IMG/VR virus record: IMGVR_UViG_2718218131_000006
DNA: 49,917 bases
Reading direction: 5' to 3' (one strand)
From: a virus
Taxonomy: Duplodnaviria > Heunggongvirae > Uroviricota > Caudoviricetes
The notes under the pieces are model-generated. The model had not been told where the DNA came from. It saw nothing but the letters and a program-made list of their open reading frames with translations, and did no database searches. Shown here piece by piece: positions 9,996 to 45,956 of the stretch (the first letter of the stretch is position 1; each line of letters begins with the position of its first letter). A program made the translations under genes and the position numbers.

Positions 9996-12571
9996 CGCCT
10001 GCCTCCGGAAAAGACGCCGCCATCACGCATCTGCGCCTGAATCTCATCCTGCGCCCCCTTGCGGGCCATGTCATACACCGCCTTCATCAGCTGCGGCCCC
10101 GCCTGTCCGTTGGTGCCGTCGTTCTGAATCACCACGTGATTGTTCTGATTAAAACTAATGCCTTCCGCCCGCCGCATCTGCGCCGGACTTCCGGCACCGC
10201 CCACATAACCACCTTCCGCATACCCGCGCATCAGACGATACAGGTTGCCGACGCCAATCCGGCTGGTTGCCTCCTTCGTGAAGACAAACTCCCCGCGGTG
10301 GACAATACCGGCAGGTTCGTATTTGCCACCGGTTCCCGTAAATCCTCCGGTCGCGAAATGGAAGTTCGCCGCCGCAGCCTGAATGGCCGTCCCCGTGGAG
10401 GCAGACGCCCCACCACCGAAAGCACCACCCATGGCGCTGCCAATACTCCCGACAATCCCCACCATGGCCTGCTTCAGAAAAATCTCTGTCAGCATGGAGA
10501 GCACAGAACGGGTGAAACCACGCCAGCTCTGTTCGCTGCCGGTCAGCATCGCTGCCATATTCTGTGCAATACCGTCAAAGGTCTGCGTGGCCACGCTTTT
10601 AACCTGCGAAAAACTGTCCGTCGCACTTTCTGCCCACTCGCCCCAGCCGGACTTCAGACCGGCCATCCAGCTTCCACGAAGCTGCTCCTCCGCAGACCAG
10701 GTGTTCTTCAGTGCAGATGTGGCCTTCGCCAGCGCATCCGGATTATCACCGTACACGTCACGAAGGCGCTGCTCTTCCGACTCCCGCTGCGCCTGACGGT
10801 CGGTGAGTCCGCGGGCTTTTGCGCTGATTGCCGCCTGCTTCGCACTCTGCTGCTGTTCAAACCGCGCAGCCTGCTGTGCCAGCTCATTCAGCCGTTTCTG
10901 GTGTTCAACTTTGTCTCCCAGCTCAGCCAGCTGGCGTTTGTACTCCAGCGTCTCTTTCTCATGGGTCAGCAGGGATTTTTCCTGCTCAGATAACTGCCGT
11001 TTCGTGGCTGCCTCTTTCAGGACCGCATACTGATTTTCCGCTTTCCATAAATCGCGACGCTGCTGGCTGATTTTCTCATTCGCACCGCTGTGTTTTTCCA
11101 GCGTCCGGAGCTCGGTTTCAAGCGCCAGCAGGGCAGCATGCGCCTGGTCTTCCTGACGCTCACCGGCTGACACTTTGACTCCTGACGACTTCGGCTTTTT
11201 CAGCGTCGATTCATAATCCTTTTTCGCCGCCGCCATCAGCGTGTTGTAATCCGCCTGCAGGATTTTCCCGTCTTTCAGGGCCTTATTCAGTTCTTCCTGA
11301 CGGGCGGTATATTTCTCCAGCGGCGTCAGCAGACGCTCATACGCCTTCTGCGCCTCTCCGGTATACTTCAGCTGTGATGCGTCCCGTTCGGCCCGGTCCC
11401 TGGCGGCCAGTTCACCGGCTTTTTCCATATCCGACTGCAGCGTGGCCGCTGCCAGCCCCAGACGGGCATTTTCCCGGTCATTCCATGCGCCCTGAAGGTT
11501 GGCCCGGAAAGAGGCGGTTTTTCCCCGGCGCTGGCTCCGGCTCTGGTACCACTGCCATTTTTTATCCGCCTCATCAAATGCCTTCTGTGCACTGGCGAGC
11601 ATATCCGCTGAGGACTCAGGACGACCGATATCCAGAATGGCATCCCACATCGATTTGAATGCCTTCCCTGTTTTATCCGCCCAGGTCTCCAGTGTTCCCA
11701 TGTTTTCTTTCAGGCGACGGGTCTGCTCATCAAAGCCTTTCGTGGCGATATCGTTCGCCGCCTGCAATGCCCCGGCCTCGTCTCCGGAACGCTGCAGCTG
11801 TGCAACATACGCAATCTGCTCTGCCGTCACGTTACGGAACTGGCGCGCCATCGCCATCAGTCCCGACGTCGGGTCGGTGGTCAGTTTTCCGAAAGCCTCT
11901 GCAACCTTGTCCACCTCCACACCGGATGCAGACGCAAAACGCGCGACACTCTGGTTGATGGCATCAAACTGTTCACCACCACGCACACCGGCATTCACCA
12001 GGGCTGCCAGTGACTCACTCGCCTGGTTAAACGTCAGCCCTGCGGCCTGTCCGGCTCTGGAGAGCGTCAGCATGCGATCGGCAGTCAGTCCGGACTGATT
12101 ACCGGAAAGAACCAGGGTTTTATTAAACGCTGAAAGCGTGGAATCCCCCTGGTACCAGGCGTACGCCAGCGCACCTGTCGCCACCGCCAGCGAGGTGACC
12201 CCGACCATCGGCAGGGTGATCGCACCGGCAAGTCCCCTGAACATGGGGATCATCCCGCCGAAGGAGTCCTTCACCTGACCGCCCTGTTGCAGCAGGATCA
12301 GCCAGGGATTCTGACCACCGGCAAGCTGCGTGGCGATATCCGTAAACTGTGCGGGCAGGGTTCGCATGGCCGCTTTATACTGCCCGACGGAAATCCCGGC
12401 TTTTTGTGCAGCCAGCGCCTGACGACTCAGGTTCTGCTCAACAACACCGGCGGTTTTTCTGGCGTCGGTATCCAGTCCGGAAAAATGACTCCTTACCCGG
12501 CTCATCTGCTCATCGAAACGGACCGCATCCAGACTCAGGTCAATAACAAGATCACCAACCGGCTGGGACAT
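9992..12571 (-). CDS. H: Tail tape measure protein H
   Basis: 859 aa; N-terminus MSQPVGDLVIDLSLDAVRFDEQM and long stretches match my memory of lambda H. Confidence 0.92.
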   Translation of the reverse strand: MSQPVGDLVIDLSLDAVRFDEQMSRVRSHFSGLDTDARKTAGVVEQNLSRQALAAQKAGISVGQYKAAMRTLPAQFTDIATQLAGGQNPWLILLQQGGQVKDSFGGMIPMFRGLAGAITLPMVGVTSLAVATGALAYAWYQGDSTLSAFNKTLVLSGNQSGLTADRMLTLSRAGQAAGLTFNQASESLAALVNAGVRGGEQFDAINQSVARFASASGVEVDKVAEAFGKLTTDPTSGLMAMARQFRNVTAEQIAYVAQLQRSGDEAGALQAANDIATKGFDEQTRRLKENMGTLETWADKTGKAFKSMWDAILDIGRPESSADMLASAQKAFDEADKKWQWYQSRSQRRGKTASFRANLQGAWNDRENARLGLAAATLQSDMEKAGELAARDRAERDASQLKYTGEAQKAYERLLTPLEKYTARQEELNKALKDGKILQADYNTLMAAAKKDYESTLKKPKSSGVKVSAGERQEDQAHAALLALETELRTLEKHSGANEKISQQRRDLWKAENQYAVLKEAATKRQLSEQEKSLLTHEKETLEYKRQLAELGDKVEHQKRLNELAQQAARFEQQQSAKQAAISAKARGLTDRQAQRESEEQRLRDVYGDNPDALAKATSALKNTWSAEEQLRGSWMAGLKSGWGEWAESATDSFSQVKSVATQTFDGIAQNMAAMLTGSEQSWRGFTRSVLSMLTEIFLKQAMVGIVGSIGSAMGGAFGGGASASTGTAIQAAAANFHFATGGFTGTGGKYEPAGIVHRGEFVFTKEATSRIGVGNLYRLMRGYAEGGYVGGAGSPAQMRRAEGISFNQNNHVVIQNDGTNGQAGPQLMKAVYDMARKGAQDEIQAQMRDGGVFSGGRR

Positions 12572-15491: not shown

Positions 15492-15858
15492 AAACAGCCA
15501 TTCCGCCATCAACGTGTGTTTTTGCATCTGAGGACATAATCAGAATCACCCGACCAACATCCGCAATCTCAACGGATTCCCCTGTTTCACCATCAATGCT
15601 ACAGAGATGGAGGCAGGTCAGAACTCTGATGCGCGTTAACGCACCGGATGTATCCTCACGAACATCATGAGCCGCGGTTTCCCGCTCCCGGATCACCGTA
15701 TCCCCAACCTGAACATCCTCGCCGGATGACTGTATTTCCTCTTCCCATTCCGCCACCCGCTGCGCTATCTCTGCGGCACTCCCGGATATATCCGGCTCAC
15801 GCCCCAGAATCAGGGCCAGTTCATCAAGCCGTTTCAGATTTTGCTCTTTCGTTGCCAT
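15484..15858 (-). CDS. FI: DNA packaging protein FI
   Basis: Position between E and FII; AGGGGG ribosome-binding site before ATG at 15858; acidic protein. Confidence 0.7.
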   Translation of the reverse strand: MATKEQNLKRLDELALILGREPDISGSAAEIAQRVAEWEEEIQSSGEDVQVGDTVIRERETAAHDVREDTSGALTRIRVLTCLHLCSIDGETGESVEIADVGRVILIMSSDAKTHVDGGMAVYA

Positions 15859-26341: not shown

Positions 26342-26923
26342 ACTGTGATGGACTGTGCCGGACGGTCGACGGGCCCATAACGCCTGCTCCAGAGCATCCA
26401 GCACGAATGTCGTTTCCATAGACGATGAGACCCGCCACCCCACGATGTATCCGGCAAACACATCAATGATGAACGCCACATAGACGCCCCCCTGCCATGT
26501 GCTGACGTAAGTAAAATCAGCCACCCACAACTGGTCAGGACGTTCTGCCACAAACTGACGGTTTACGCGGTCGCCTGCGGCAACGGCTTTCCGGCTGACG
26601 GTAGTGCGGACCTTTTTACCCCGGAGAACACCGGCAAGTCCCATAACCGCCATGAGGCGCGCCACTGTACATCTGGCTACCCTGATTCCTTCCCGTAACA
26701 ACTGACGCCAGACTTTACGCACACCGTATACCTGATGATTCCCATCGTATACGCGCAGTATCTCTTTCTTCAGCCAGTCATCGCGCTGCGCACGGGCACT
26801 GCGTTTATCAGGATGATGTCGCTGTTGCTGACAGTGGTAATACGTTGACGGGGCAATATGTAGTTCACTGCATACCGGTCCGACCCCGTACAGCTTACGC
26901 AGCTTATCCAGCAGTGGCATCAC
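26342..26923 (-). pseudogene. IS629 transposase orfB, N-terminal fragment (interrupted)
   Basis: ...DQLWVADFTYVSTWQGGVYVAFIIDVFAGYIVGW...HHSDKG, then runs into IS21 end sequence. Confidence 0.8.
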
Positions 26924-27246
26924 TTTTTCCAGAGGCGGTCGAACTCCGCCTTTGCAAAATAAGCGGAAGCCTGGCGAAGGATATCGTTACTGCGGCGCAG
27001 TTCACGATTTTCACGTTCCAGCTCTTTCAGACGCTGACGTTCAGCGGTGGTGAGCCCGCCATCACCGCCTCCGGTATCCCGCTCATGCTGGCGTACCCAG
27101 ACACGCAGAGTCTCCGGTGTACAGCCAATCTTTGGGGCAATGGAACAAATTGCCGCCCACTGTGAGTCATATTCGCCCTGACTTTCCAGAACCATACGAA
27201 TCGCCCTCTGACGGACTTCGGGGGAAAAACGAGTATTTTTAGTCAT
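26920..27246 (-). CDS. IS629 OrfA (helix-turn-helix, leucine-zipper transposase subunit)
   Basis: [57 protein letters not shown] matches my memory of IS629 OrfA. Confidence 0.85.
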
Positions 27247-42140: not shown

Positions 42141-42642
42141 AATTCCATCCGACTTTTTGTTGATATTGCTGACGATACGCACGCTTGAAAGCAATGGCTT
42201 TTTCTATAAGCTCGTCAGTCTCACGTTCCACAACAGCTGGATCCGCAAAAAGCAGCCCGGACTCCACCACATCGCCATATTCTTTGTTTAACCCGGCGAT
42301 CATGTACGTAATGCTTTTTCCGTCAGTAATTTCACAATACAACCTGAAATCGCTGATCCGGATAGCCTCCATAATTGCCGGAATCAGCGCCGTGAATTTT
42401 TCACGCTTATCCCTGGTGTCGATAGCTTTCCAGCGTTCGAATATCTTCACCCTGTTAACGCCCAGCGCCCGTTGATCAACCGCGCCATCATCAAACGTGA
42501 CGCGATGAACATCGATGTTCGGGCGTTCTTTCAGAGCCCAGAATGCTTCCGTGATTAATATCGTCGCCTGCTCCTGCGTCATTCCTGGTCGGCATACCCA
42601 GGCATCCAGAGCCTCGCGAGCCTGCTCAGGAGTGAATATCAT
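42121..42642 (-). CDS. Hypothetical early protein (possibly YdaT/cII-like)
   Basis: 173-aa ORF between the cro-like and O-like genes; family assignment is a guess. Confidence 0.5.
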   Translation of the reverse strand: MIFTPEQAREALDAWVCRPGMTQEQATILITEAFWALKERPNIDVHRVTFDDGAVDQRALGVNRVKIFERWKAIDTRDKREKFTALIPAIMEAIRISDFRLYCEITDGKSITYMIAGLNKEYGDVVESGLLFADPAVVERETDELIEKAIAFKRAYRQQYQQKVGWNYESSFC

Positions 42643-42901
42643 TGTTCACCGCCAGTGATTCATTCGACATACACTTATTTTCACAAGGTAGTCCATCTGT
42701 TGGGTTGGGATAAATGTCAGGGCGAAGTTCGTGGGGAGTAATTTCCCAATTCAGTAATGCACAGAGTGACGACACGCGTTCAGCAGGAACCTTGCCTTTA
42801 ATGAACCACTTGCCTACGGCCTGGGAGCTAATGCCAAAGTGTTTGCCAATGTCAGTTTTCGACATTTTTTTAGAGATCTTATCGTGAATTTGATTACTCA
42901 T
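42626..42901 (-). CDS. Cro/DicC-like small helix-turn-helix regulator
   Basis: Divergent from the repressor; MSKTDIGKHFGISSQAVGKWF resembles the DicC/YdaS N-terminus; start could be 42864. Confidence 0.6.
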   Translation of the reverse strand: MSNQIHDKISKKMSKTDIGKHFGISSQAVGKWFIKGKVPAERVSSLCALLNWEITPHELRPDIYPNPTDGLPCENKCMSNESLAVNNDIHS

Positions 42902-42939
42902 ACTTTCCACCAGTACTATTAATTTCACCTACGCTACCA

Positions 42940-43013: not shown

Positions 43014-43424
43014 ATGAGTAAAATAAACCATCCAATATTTGCTGAGAGAGTTCGGCAAGCAATGAGCGAACATGGCTGGTCGTTAGCCGGTCTGGCTAAA
43101 AAGGTTATGCTGTCCCATACCGCTGTGCGTAAGTGGGCAACAGGAGAAACCATTGCCAGCGGAGAAAGATTAAAAAGACTTGCCGCGGTAACAGGAAAAC
43201 CAGAACATTGGTTTTTTATGCCGCTAAATGAACATTCAAAGGAAGAAGATGCACCACCACTAATCCAGCTTGACGACAAAGAAAAGGCGCTATTGTCCCT
43301 TTTTAATCAGTTGCCAGAAACGGAAAAGCTGAGACTAATCATGCACACAAAAAGCATTCTTCATGAAATGGATCTTCTAAAAAACGATGTATACGACATA
43401 ATCAATGATATTCAAAAACAATAA
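43014..43424 (+). CDS. Prophage repressor (DicA/cI-like, XRE helix-turn-helix)
   Basis: N-terminal helix-turn-helix AERVRQAMSEHGWSLAGLAKKVMLSHTAVRKW; KALLSLFNQLPETEK resembles DicA. Confidence 0.75.
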   Translation: MSKINHPIFAERVRQAMSEHGWSLAGLAKKVMLSHTAVRKWATGETIASGERLKRLAAVTGKPEHWFFMPLNEHSKEEDAPPLIQLDDKEKALLSLFNQLPETEKLRLIMHTKSILHEMDLLKNDVYDIINDIQKQ

Positions 43425-43460: not shown

Positions 43461-43496
43461 ATCCTCACAAATAAAACTTTATGTTCCATTGCCTAT

Positions 43497-43525
43497 TGAC
43501 CAATAAAACCAATAGTTTTACCATT
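43497..43525 (+). promoter_or_regulatory. Putative early-left promoter with an operator-like palindrome in the spacer
   Basis: TTGACC, 17-nt spacer, TACCAT; spacer contains aaaaccaatagtttt, a third copy of the operator-like motif. Confidence 0.45.
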
Positions 43526-43602: not shown

Positions 43603-43758
43603 ATGGATACTATCGATCTTGGCAACAACGAATCTCTGGTGTACGGCGTGTTTCCAAACCAGGACGGCACCTTCACCGCAATGACGTATACCAAAAGCAA
43701 AACGTTTAAAACCGAAAATGGTGCCCGTCGCTGGCTGGAAAGAAACTCAGGTGAGTGA
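43603..43758 (+). CDS. Small protein, YdfA-like by position and length (51 aa)
   Basis: Not in the ORF track because under 60 aa; GAGGT ribosome-binding site; MDTIDLGNNESLVYGVF... Confidence 0.5.
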   Translation: MDTIDLGNNESLVYGVFPNQDGTFTAMTYTKSKTFKTENGARRWLERNSGE

Positions 43759-43917: not shown

Positions 43918-44124
43918 ATGCAGAAACGAGAACCCGTCATCATCGCGCCAGACTATACCGATGATGAACTTTATGAGTGGATGCGCGGGAAGATACGCGC
44001 CATTAATGACCTGAAGCAGGCCACTGATCACAAAGAGCGCCTCTCTGAAACACTGGCGTCAGTGACGCAGGATATTACCGCTCTGGCAAAAAGCGCGGCA
44101 TTAAACGTTTCGCGAGTGATCTAA
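43918..44124 (+). CDS. Small protein, YdfC-like by position
   Basis: 68-aa ORF with GAGGAA ribosome-binding site. Confidence 0.55.
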   Translation: MQKREPVIIAPDYTDDELYEWMRGKIRAINDLKQATDHKERLSETLASVTQDITALAKSAALNVSRVI

Positions 44125-44148
44125 AACCACCGACTGATGAGGTTGACT

Positions 44149-44787
44149 ATGGAATTTAAAGATTTACCAATTTCAATACAGGAAATGGCCGCTGATGTGA
44201 TTCGCTCGCAACTGGCGCGGAACCCAATGATATTAGTAGATAAACTGTTCATCAGAAATTTATCAAATCATGTCCGTAATTCTTTTACCGGACTGTATTC
44301 ATATTCGTTCACAAACAATCATTGTGTAGAAAATAAAGCAAAACTCATTGCAGAAACGACAGCGCAAAACATCAACACGAAACCAACGGAAGAAGAAATT
44401 GATCAGTTTGCTCATGATGCTGGTTTAAAAAACAAGGAAGAAAAATCGCCATATGCGGGAAACATGTTTGTTTATGACAACCTTATCCGAATTCGTGGCG
44501 AAATTCCGACTGAATACCTGGCAAAAATTCACCAGGCATTACTTAAAAATCTGGAAACGGAAGTATTTGATGGCAACACCAACGGCTCCTTCGTGGTGTC
44601 AGCTCTCGCAAAAGAGTGGGATAAAGATAATCGCTGGAATGTTGCTACATGGTTATTCAGCAACAAAGCTTCCGCCCTGGAAGCTGCGGCGTGTATTTGC
44701 GACCTGCTAAGGACAGACCGCAAATACAACCTGGATGTGTATAGCTATATTTATGCTGAACACTATCCGCTATGGATTAACTGGTAA
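44149..44787 (+). CDS. Hypothetical AT-rich 212-aa protein (moron of unknown function)
   Basis: GAGG ribosome-binding site; lower GC than its surroundings; no recognisable motifs. Confidence 0.6.
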   Translation: MEFKDLPISIQEMAADVIRSQLARNPMILVDKLFIRNLSNHVRNSFTGLYSYSFTNNHCVENKAKLIAETTAQNINTKPTEEEIDQFAHDAGLKNKEEKSPYAGNMFVYDNLIRIRGEIPTEYLAKIHQALLKNLETEVFDGNTNGSFVVSALAKEWDKDNRWNVATWLFSNKASALEAAACICDLLRTDRKYNLDVYSYIYAEHYPLWINW

Positions 44788-44997
44788 TTACAAAGCTGTA
44801 CCAGCAGGGCCACGACGACCAGCACCACGATTGTAATCAATGATGCCATTATAAAGCGCATTATTTAATTTATCGTCGAATGCCGATTCTGTGAGTCCTA
44901 GCTCTGAATGAGTTTTTAATAACCCTGATTGCCTGAGTTGATTAACCAGGCATTCAATCTGTTTTTCAATAAGCGGATGTATTGGCTTGTTTGGCAT
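44788..44997 (-). CDS. Hypothetical 69-aa protein, convergent with and abutting the 212-aa gene
   Basis: GGAGGA ribosome-binding site; MPNKPIHPLIEKQIECLVNQLRQSGLL...; stop codons of the two genes form TAATTA. Confidence 0.45.
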   Translation of the reverse strand: MPNKPIHPLIEKQIECLVNQLRQSGLLKTHSELGLTESAFDDKLNNALYNGIIDYNRGAGRRGPAGTAL

Positions 44998-45324
44998 TTT
45001 ATCCTCCATTGAGGTTCTGGGTTAAAAATGGAGACCAACACGCTGCCACGTGTGGTCGTGCGCCGGACACGGATAAGAATCCGGTACTGACAGTTTACTG
45101 AAAGGATATTTCCCTGAAAAGTCAGGGCATAACGCGAAAGCGCACGGCGGAGGTGTCTTTTCCTTAGAAGGCTTGTCGTTAGATTTCTTCGACCGTGCGC
45201 TTCCGGTTGTGGCAATCCGCGAAATGGCGCGGCGGTACGTATGGCGGGGTTATTCCTTCCCCCTGTTGAGGACACCGGGTTGTCAGGTTGACCATACGCC
45301 TGAGTGACAACCCCGCTGCAACAA

Positions 45325-45383
45325 CCCATGTTGATTACCTTTTGGCGGCATCAGTTTCATTGCTGGCTGATGTCCGCCCTTTT
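45325..45383 (+). ncRNA. dicF: DicF-like small RNA with intrinsic terminator
   Basis: TTTTGGCGGCATCAGTTTCATTGCTGGCTGATGTCCGCCCTTTTT resembles my memory of K-12 DicF; located just upstream of the dicB homologue as in Qin; 5' end approximate. Confidence 0.6.
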
Positions 45384-45387
45384 TAAA

Positions 45388-45550
45388 GTGAATTTTGTGA
45401 TGCGGTGAATGCGGCTCAGCGCACGCGGAACAGTTAAAAAGGCCAGTTGACTTCCGTATTGGTTCTTATGGGTGGGTTCTCTGTATCCGGCGTTAATTGT
45501 TAACTGGTTAACGTCACCTGGAGGCACCAGGCACCGCATCACAAAATTCA
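45388..45550 (+). promoter_or_regulatory. Perfect 19-bp inverted repeat enclosing about 125 nt, between the DicF terminator and the dicB ribosome-binding site
   Basis: TGAATTTTGTGATGCGGTG at 45388-45406 and its exact reverse complement at 45532-45550. Confidence 0.6.
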
Positions 45551-45567
45551 TTGTTGAGGACGCGATA

Positions 45568-45756
45568 ATGGAAACGTTATTACCAAACGTTAATACGTCT
45601 GAAGGTTGTTTTGAAATTGGTGTCAGTATCAGTAACCCTGTATTTACTGAAGATGCCATTAATAAGAGAAAACACGAACGGGAGCTATTAAATCAAATAT
45701 GCATTGTTTCAATGCTGGCCCGTTTACGTCTGATGCAAAAAGGATACTGGCAATGA
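45568..45756 (+). CDS. dicB: Cell-division inhibitor DicB
   Basis: 62 aa METLLPNVNTSEGCFEIGVSISNPVFTEDAINKRK...SMLARLRLM matches my memory of K-12 DicB; GAGGA ribosome-binding site. Confidence 0.8.
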   Translation: METLLPNVNTSEGCFEIGVSISNPVFTEDAINKRKHERELLNQICIVSMLARLRLMQKGYWQ

Positions 45757-45956
45757 ATACTGCTATTGCCCTCACTCTGACTGTTTTTCTTAACACTGGC
45801 GAGCCTGTTGACCTGGTTATTGACATTTACGGTTCGATGAAAGAATGCATGGCTGCCGCAGCAGAACAGAAAATTCCCGGTAACTGTTATCCGGTTGATA
45901 AAGTTATTCACATGGACAATAACGAAATCCCGGCAGGACTTAAACCAGCACCGTAA
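45753..45956 (+). CDS. Small protein, YdfD-like by position
   Basis: 67 aa; ATGA overlap with the dicB stop; hydrophobic N-terminus. Confidence 0.55.
   Translation: MNTAIALTLTVFLNTGEPVDLVIDIYGSMKECMAAAAEQKIPGNCYPVDKVIHMDNNEIPAGLKPAP

Follow-up and report, generated by a model that had tools for sequence, protein, structure and literature searches.

DicF is a textbook prophage small RNA (sRNA). In Escherichia coli K-12 it is processed from a transcript initiated upstream of ydfA, from which RNase III yields a 190-nucleotide (nt) species and RNase E the 53-nt RNA (PMC10448788). Its loop/3′ region pairs with pykA and with the ribosome-binding site of ftsZ, and its 5′ end pairs with xylR (PMC5069750). 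In EHEC O157:H7, dicF copies have been linked to activation of pchA and the LEE and to repression of stx2. Prophage elements that are dicF-like and terminator-like have been known since 1994 (as summarised in a later paper); the main survey of DicF took in only dicF sequences of more than 99% identity (PMC5069750), and a 2016 report found no DicF matches in the phage databases of that time.

Two further groups of prophage sRNAs are relevant here. KilS was detected by RIL-seq, a method that captures RNA pairs bound to Hfq, and its presence in K-12 was confirmed by Northern blotting. It is 98 nt long, may have its own promoter and was described in 2021 in a paper that leaves DicF unmentioned (PMC8175672). 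The Pas sRNAs are confined to prophages of Escherichia and Shigella, where one genome can carry several copies and variants, and it has been suggested that minor differences in the seed region alter the targets that they bind; the study that describes them does not mention DicF either (bioRxiv 10.64898/2026.05.13.724894).

Here we analyse a related locus in a tailed-virus record (IMG/VR IMGVR_UViG_2718218131_000006), the whole 49,917-nt stretch of which we call the window. A sequence-only reading had placed at 45325–45383 a DicF-like sRNA, embedded in a homologue of the dicB operon. We consider it reasonably probable (at approximately 0.6) that positions 45329–45384 of the plus strand encode a rare, diverged allele (that is, B2) of a DicF/KilS family of terminator-sRNAs, which would combine attenuation in cis with action in trans on a target set other than that of DicF.

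The element lies in a dicB operon

The element is located between a gene in the position of ydfC and dicB, in a prophage operon of the dicA/dicC type (Table 1). Pfam matches and alignment with K-12 recover the gene order of the K-12 Qin dicBF operon, as the sequence-only reading had proposed, and the DicB homologue that it had placed downstream is indeed encoded there, with 55 of 62 residues (89%) identical to K-12 DicB. Its start is 184 nt downstream of the hairpin, beyond a 183-nt leader. Given its position relative to ydfA, the promoter-like site at the head of the operon is a candidate equivalent of dicBp.

Two additional genes precede the element, separated from the hairpin by approximately 320 nt of non-coding sequence, and neither gave a Pfam or PADLOC match. 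In an identical genome, PGAP annotates the first of these as a partial pseudogene, and sequence around the start of the second is also found in prophage Sp4 of strain Sakai, where ECs_1061 is annotated. On the 3′ side, the DUF1482 gene is followed by a RecE-like exonuclease gene, xis and int. The 981-bp region that carries the window allele is 100% identical in two chicken isolates. E. coli strains PK8241 and Z1323CEC0005 are examples of carriers of the allele. The dicF–dicB region of PK8241 is 100% identical, but its RecE-like gene is split by an IS3-family element (6255–10033 of its record), whereas that of the window (46034–48499, plus strand; 821 amino acids (aa)) is intact, so that the window represents a related but different prophage copy or strain. 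An ALIL pseudoknot, the frameshift signal of IS3-family transposases (26849–26965, minus strand; Rfam RF01497, 116 bits), shows an insertion sequence to be present inside the prophage.

Table 1. Features of the dicB operon region in the window
Feature	Position	Strand	Evidence and remarks
dicC/ydaS-like Cro-type regulator	42626–42928	−	Divergent from the operon; Pfam YdaS_toxin, 39 bits; dicC position in K-12 Qin
dicA-like helix-turn-helix repressor	43014–43424	+	Pfam HTH_3, 39.3 bits; position and strand as K-12 dicA
Promoter-like site (TTGACC, 17-nt spacer, TACCAT)	43496–43524	+	Consensus scan only; upstream of ydfA homologue
ydfA homologue (DUF1391), operon gene 1	43603–43758	+	Pfam DUF1391, 98.5 bits
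ydfB	Between ydfA and the ydfC-position gene	+	Gene order
ydfC-position gene	43918–44124	+	phrog_1744, 99 bits; same place as K-12 ydfC
Extra gene 1, not in K-12 Qin	44137–44787	+	phrog_2151, 335 bits; phage family of unknown function
Extra gene 2, not in K-12 Qin	44788–45009	−	phrog_4274, 142 bits; phage family of unknown function
Long imperfect helix, 29 bp	45126–45213 (45126–45158 with 45181–45213)	+	Conserved upstream leader; MFE fold of 45030–45384, z = −3.37
Small precursor hairpin, CAACA/UGUUG	45319–45333	+	Folds
Single-stranded 5′ arm, module B, UGUUGAUUACCUUUU	45329–45343	+	Candidate seed and U-rich tract before the hairpin; unpaired in all folds
Terminator hairpin, module 2	45344–45379	+	Stem GGCGGCAUCAG/CUGAUG(U)CCGCC; loop region UUUCAUUGCUGG
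U5 tail	45380–45384	+	Expected 3′ end of the short RNA; same in K-12 dicF and Rac kilS
Conserved leader between sRNA and dicB	45385–45567	+	Weak STnc100-like match; holds a perfect 19-bp long-range stem
dicB, cell-division inhibitor, 62 aa	45568–45756	+	Pfam DicB, 131.1 bits
DUF1482 gene, ydfD position	45753–45956	+	Pfam DUF1482, 72.9 bits; PGAP annotation of identical locus

A terminator hairpin with a single-stranded arm

The plus strand reads GGCGG at 45344–45348, CCGCC(C) at 45374–45379 and TTTTT at 45380–45384. Folded as RNA, 45325–45384 forms a 13-bp stem with a single bulged U and an 8-nt loop (−21.0 kcal/mol; z = −4.18, with none of 200 dinucleotide shuffles equalling its energy), and the 19 nt on the 5′ side of the stem remain unpaired. 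A consensus terminator scan reported the same hairpin, which has the form of an intrinsic (Rho-independent) terminator (that is, a G+C-rich stem-loop on the transcribed strand, directly followed by a U run). The hairpin and T-run on which the sequence-only reading was built are thus seen in the letters, the fold and the scan, and its coordinates were off by no more than a few bases. The window has a single copy of the 26-nt junction sequence, which matched nothing in any of 100 shuffles. The layout (that is, single-stranded 5′ arm, G+C-rich terminator hairpin and U tail) is DicF-like, in an RNA of presumably approximately 56 nt versus approximately 53 nt for DicF; 45329–45384 is our best estimate of its extent, with the 5′ end placed by analogy with K-12 only.

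Relation to DicF and KilS

Searched over 1.1 kb in E-value mode, the Rfam DicF model (RF00039) aligned end to end with 45329–45379 (34.1 bits, E = 2 × 10−5), short of its gathering score of 48 bits; K-12 DicF itself scored 76.7 bits and the 3′ part of Rac KilS 39.1 bits. Because of this shortfall, a search of the whole window at Rfam gathering thresholds returned no DicF, the insertion-sequence-associated ALIL pseudoknot being its sole match. Pairwise alignment with K-12 Qin gave a mean column identity of 92% over 45250–45760 and flanks of about 95–100% identity on both sides of the RNA. Apart from one variable spacer patch, the differences (substitutions and a 12-column gap) cluster in 45323–45373, that is, in the RNA body, which is the most diverged stretch of the alignment. 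By position and alignment, the element is a positional and evolutionary homologue of K-12 Qin dicF. The resemblance to Qin DicF that the sequence-only reading had noted therefore holds for position, operon, flanks and processing helices, and for a full-length match to the family model, but not for the RNA body, which is diverged and scores below the threshold.

The terminator stem points elsewhere. In K-12, KilS is annotated (b4833) at 8406–8503 on the minus strand of the Rac prophage record. A three-way alignment of the window, K-12 dicF and Rac kilS showed that all three loci share the base of the hairpin, the U5 tail and the whole downstream leader, and that the halves of the window stem (GGCGGCAUCAG/CUGAUGUCCGCC) are identical to those of KilS and not to those of DicF; window and KilS are also nearly identical in the downstream leader through GATGCGGTGAATGCGGCT. 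The upstream leader of the window is of the Qin type, and the 5′ arm and loop (UUUCAUUGCUGG) match neither DicF nor KilS. The terminator stem is closer to Rac KilS than to DicF, and the element is thus a mosaic member of a DicF/KilS family and no DicF copy. Given the shared stem base, U tail and leader, and the score of KilS on the Rfam DicF model, DicF and KilS would appear to be paralogues, each of which precedes a gene for a division inhibitor (that is, dicB or kilR). Our literature search returned no searchable paper that names both. Faubladier and Bouche reportedly described dicF-like, terminator-like elements in 1994, one of them in Rac, and the relationship between DicF and KilS may therefore not be new.

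A conserved processing scaffold

The long imperfect helix of the upstream leader (Table 1) is also present in the K-12 fold, and the 5′ end of the K-12 190-nt species maps, approximately, to its 3′ arm in the three-way alignment. Part of 45030–45318 thus appears to coincide, approximately, with the site at which RNase III generates the 190-nt DicF precursor. This non-coding stretch as a whole is approximately 95% identical to K-12, has a fold more stable than those of shuffles (z = −3.4), forms further helices at 45243–45317 and matched no Rfam family at E values up to 10. K-12 also has an analogue of the small precursor hairpin, with the mapped and annotated 5′ end of DicF in its loop; by analogy, the loop of the window hairpin may be where RNase E cuts to free the 5′ arm. 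The conserved helices and the small hairpin together suggest that the window RNA is matured as in K-12.

On the downstream side, the long-range stem of the leader (45389–45407 with 45532–45550) is a 100% complementary inverted repeat of 19 bp, and its K-12 version has two G–U wobbles where the window has G–C pairs. The leader is likewise conserved upstream of kilR in Rac. On the Rfam STnc100 model (RF02076), 45377–45600 scored 34.0 bits, below the 47-bit gathering score, and the K-12 Qin and Rac leaders were likewise below it (34.4 and 28 bits, respectively).

Predicted pairing with DicF targets is lost

Pairing was predicted with an in-house windowed duplex search with accessibility penalties, used instead of plain RNAduplex without a length limit (which gave meaningless full-length duplexes), against a background of 40 dinucleotide-shuffled targets; the energy model was checked on four known pairs only. 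With the K-12 allele, the scan recovered all four validated targets, for which 0–4 of 40 shuffled targets were as good: ftsZ at −28 to −7 (duplex −22.7, total −7.9 kcal/mol), manX at +33 to +52 (total −10.2 kcal/mol), pykA at −19 to 0 (total −11.7 kcal/mol) and xylR at +11 to +20 (total −11.5 kcal/mol).

The window allele behaved differently. Its best total was −0.7 kcal/mol on ftsZ (at another site; 18 of 40 shuffled targets as good), −3.0 kcal/mol on pykA (18 of 40), −0.4 kcal/mol on xylR (17 of 40) and −6.9 kcal/mol on manX (2 of 40), the last at the ribosome-binding site and not at +33 to +52. This marginal pairing of the 5′ arm with manX may reflect only general Shine–Dalgarno complementarity. 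In silico, the window allele has neither the antisense loop/3′ region against ftsZ, which is the defining function of DicF, nor complementarity to the xylR, pykA and manX sites of K-12 DicF, and its pairing with ftsZ, pykA and xylR is predicted to be lost. On ftsZ, one of the two 5′ regions for which the sequence-only reading had proposed a pairing prediction, the window allele is thus at background level, and the repression of ftsZ that this reading implied is not supported by the model. The same applies to an action on pchA: when the Sakai pchA leader was scanned, the K-12 allele was predicted to pair beside the ribosome-binding site by means of ACUCCGUGACUGCUCUGCC, a motif absent from the window allele, for which only a weak distal match was predicted.

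Could the element nevertheless work as a DicF orthologue, with ftsZ (and, in EHEC backgrounds, pchA) still repressed by way of some other or shorter pairing? It has the locus, operon and scaffold of K-12 dicF, and its loop AGUUUCAUUG can form 10 bp (one of them G–U) with ftsZ +10 to +19, inside the initiation region covered by the ribosome. However, accessibility reduces this match to the background energy given above, the K-12 motif for the −28 to −7 site is absent (and, for DicF9 and DicF23, mutated ftsZ pairing abolishes regulation in K-12 (PMC5069750)), the Rfam DicF score is under the threshold, and K-12-type pairing beside pchA would need the same missing motif. We therefore regard an ftsZ-repressing orthologue as quite improbable.

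The reverse complement of the 5′ arm, AAAAGGUAAUCAACAUG, reads as a Shine–Dalgarno sequence, a 7-nt spacer and AUG. As such a resemblance to a translation start is what would be expected of an arm antisense to a start region, a perfect complement was sought. Apart from the locus itself, the window contains none. A 16-mer scan of IMG/VR gave 78 matches at dicF loci and 43 in scattered, unrelated phage contexts, with no recurrent enterobacterial target, and blastn against 50,697 phage records found no long antisense target. The same blastn search returned homologous loci in Stx and Rac-type phages, and chance matches in Staphylococcus and Lactobacillus phages. Records of Stx-converting and Rac-type phages carry dicF/kilS-like hairpins approximately 6–8 kb from one record end (for example, Shigella phage POCJ13, 6565–6635; Escherichia phage phiSTEC1589-Stx1c, 6900–6943; Rac-SA53, 8073–8121).

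An allele family on a common scaffold

Patterns tied to the conserved flanks were used to scan IMG/VR, and the junction of hairpin end and leader was used for GTDB representative genomes. The 5′ arms found were of types A (K-12), B (window), B′, C, D and the KilS type, and the hairpins of types 1 (K-12), 2 (window), 3, 4, 5 (minimal), 6 and 7 (KilS), in the combinations A1, B2 (window), B3, A4, A5, B′2, C2, D6 and KilS; the window arm thus recurs in B3 alleles, which bear another hairpin. All nine allele sequences fold as a single-stranded arm of approximately 13–24 nt, a hairpin and U5, with the additions that the longer arm of C2 also forms a small hairpin itself and that the hairpin of A5 is a minimal one of 6 bp. 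Between fixed anchors the alleles measure 98, 105, 106, 107, 110, 115, 116 and 117 nt, and as these differences are not multiples of three, the region is evidently non-coding. The RNA types lie upstream of dicB or kilR, A1, B2 and B3 each occurring with both genes (B2 precedes a kilR-like gene in three other loci).

Among 5,426 complete E. coli genomes, A1 (the K-12 type) was found in 3,952, KilS in 1,330, B3 in 157 and B2 in approximately 81 (at a coverage of at least 80%; approximately 61 records at an identity of at least 99%). B2 was also found in several viral contigs. In GTDB representatives, the only exact junctions outside Escherichia and Shigella were in two metagenome bins whose assigned taxa look implausible for this sequence. 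Nor is any feature annotated under the match in the RefSeq records listed, including 10 for K-12-type copies, so that the missing annotation of the window allele is uninformative.

These counts bear on whether the element has a function at all. A chance hairpin or decayed remnant would fit the sub-threshold Rfam match and the rarity of the allele. Against it stand the shuffles, none of which folds as well or contains the junction 26-mer, the exact conservation in the approximately 61 records and several viral contigs, and the intact surrounding operon, dicB included; given this conservation and synteny, we regard the chance or decay reading as effectively refuted.

Whether the variable parts are under selection is a separate matter. 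Covariation is weak (1 of 12 hairpin pairs compensatory; RNAalifold, ten alleles) because the stem is mostly conserved in sequence, and in the list of distinct sequences, K-12-type loci differ by single bases not only in the RNA body but also in the flank next to it; together, these observations do not show that the variable parts are under selection. With 118 sequences, a MAFFT alignment of the extended flanks had too many gaps for a clean conservation profile, and pairwise and three-way alignments were used instead. The same B2 body is found in eight distinct loci with flanks of, on average, 76% identity upstream and 83% downstream, an invariance that is partly circular, as the loci were gathered and classed by exact RNA matches.

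On this background, the element might be a cis-acting device only, that is, a terminator or attenuator and processing site that sets transcription into the toxic dicB, with loop and arm varying because they are unconstrained. Such a device would account for a strong hairpin and U5 directly upstream of the dicB leader, and what the family conserves, namely the stem, the U tail and the downstream leader, is exactly what a terminator needs, with loops and arms differing freely; the minimal hairpin of A5 suggests that termination alone could be the shared function. However, both studied relatives have RNA partners (validated mRNA targets for DicF and RIL-seq chimeras for KilS (PMC8175672)), the arms and loops come in a small number of discrete types, found again unaltered in diverged contexts, and not as a continuum of drifted variants, and every allele retains the order of arm, U-tract, hairpin and U tail. 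Roles in cis and in trans can, moreover, coexist, as in K-12. We hold a purely cis-acting element to be plausible but less likely than an sRNA that also acts in trans, and the most serious of the alternatives.

A proposed scenario and its implications

Assuming that the element is instead a DicF/KilS-family sRNA with roles both in cis and in trans, the following sequence of events can be envisioned. From the early leftward-type operon of a lambdoid prophage, a transcript would be made that passes through the element directly upstream of the dicB leader. RNase III would cleave it within the upstream helix of 29 bp, and RNase E within the loop of the small precursor hairpin; transcription would either end in the U5 tail or continue into dicB. 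Once released, the RNA of approximately 56 nt, with its single-stranded arm, U-tract, terminator and U tail (that is, the usual Hfq-binding layout), may act in trans on mRNAs outside the DicF regulon. The hairpin, predicted to be stronger than that of K-12, may meanwhile limit read-through into the toxic dicB.

A broader conjecture, to which we give somewhat less than even odds, is that the site before dicB or kilR in Escherichia lambdoid prophages is a modular sRNA cassette, in which a fixed scaffold (processing helices, the base of the terminator stem, the U tail and the conserved leader) bears interchangeable arms and loops with lineage-specific targets, B2 being a functional version that has given up ftsZ. 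If so, DicF (with ftsZ, xylR, pykA and manX) and KilS (with yncL) would be two of at least eight combinations, and each prophage lineage would deliver an sRNA with its own set of host or phage targets. Functional alleles would also provide a natural series of seed swaps on one scaffold, useful for understanding the gain and loss of host targets by sRNAs acquired through horizontal transfer, and how such an sRNA is balanced against a toxic gene downstream.

In practical terms, a search with Rfam DicF at the curated threshold misses part of the family. As the missed alleles differ exactly at the target contacts of DicF, a dicB operon would, in such strains, be no safe ground for inferring that ftsZ is repressed or virulence regulated. 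The main value of the window element is as a warning against deriving function from the homology of a locus, and as one apparent member of a modular, seed-swapping cassette.

Comparison with known systems

The window element resembles K-12 DicF in its place in a dicA-controlled ydfABC–dicF–dicB operon, the GGCGG/CCGCC base of the hairpin, the U5 tail, a single-stranded 5′ arm of approximately 15 nt, the upstream helix of the RNase III region and the downstream long-range stem. It differs in its arm (UGUUGAUUACCUUUU versus UUUCUGGUGACGUUU in K-12) and loop, which are unrelated in sequence, and in its inner stem, which is of other sequence and stronger (−21 versus −15.9 kcal/mol). It has neither the loop/3′ motif ACUCCGUGACUGCUCUGCC, with which K-12 DicF pairs with the ftsZ ribosome-binding site, nor the 5′ motif CUGGUGACGUU, which pairs with xylR, and the predicted pairing of K-12 DicF with its site in the manX coding region is absent.

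With KilS, the element shares a nearly identical downstream leader (including GATGCGGTG and the long-range stem) and a position directly upstream of a division-inhibitor gene. The loop of KilS (UUUUUUUCUUGAAGUUCGG) and its 5′ region (…UGCUGUGUGUAGUCCU), by contrast, are completely unlike those of the window, the Rac-type upstream region is without most of the Qin-type structured leader, and KilS lies in the 5′ untranslated region of kilR, whereas dicB is downstream of the window element.

The dicF copies of EHEC O157:H7 are likewise prophage-borne and in dicB operons, and the Sakai Sp4 locus also has the small reverse-strand open reading frame of the window locus. The one Sakai copy that was read (15720–15800, minus strand of the Sp4 record) is of the K-12 type (A1) with point changes and keeps the ACUCCGU(A/G)ACUGCUCUGCC motif, whereas the window allele is without it. 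The link to virulence regulation on which the sequence-only reading drew applies to K-12-type copies. Changes in the Sp4 copy lie in the arm (GUGACAUUU) and in the loop that pairs with ftsZ (CCGUAACUG), and its tail has six U; even K-12-type EHEC copies thus vary in their seed regions.

Finally, the Pas and STnc100 families are, like the element described here, prophage sRNAs with sequence variants, although the Pas genes are found near the Q antiterminator and the lysis region (bioRxiv 10.64898/2026.05.13.724894), and not in a dicB operon.
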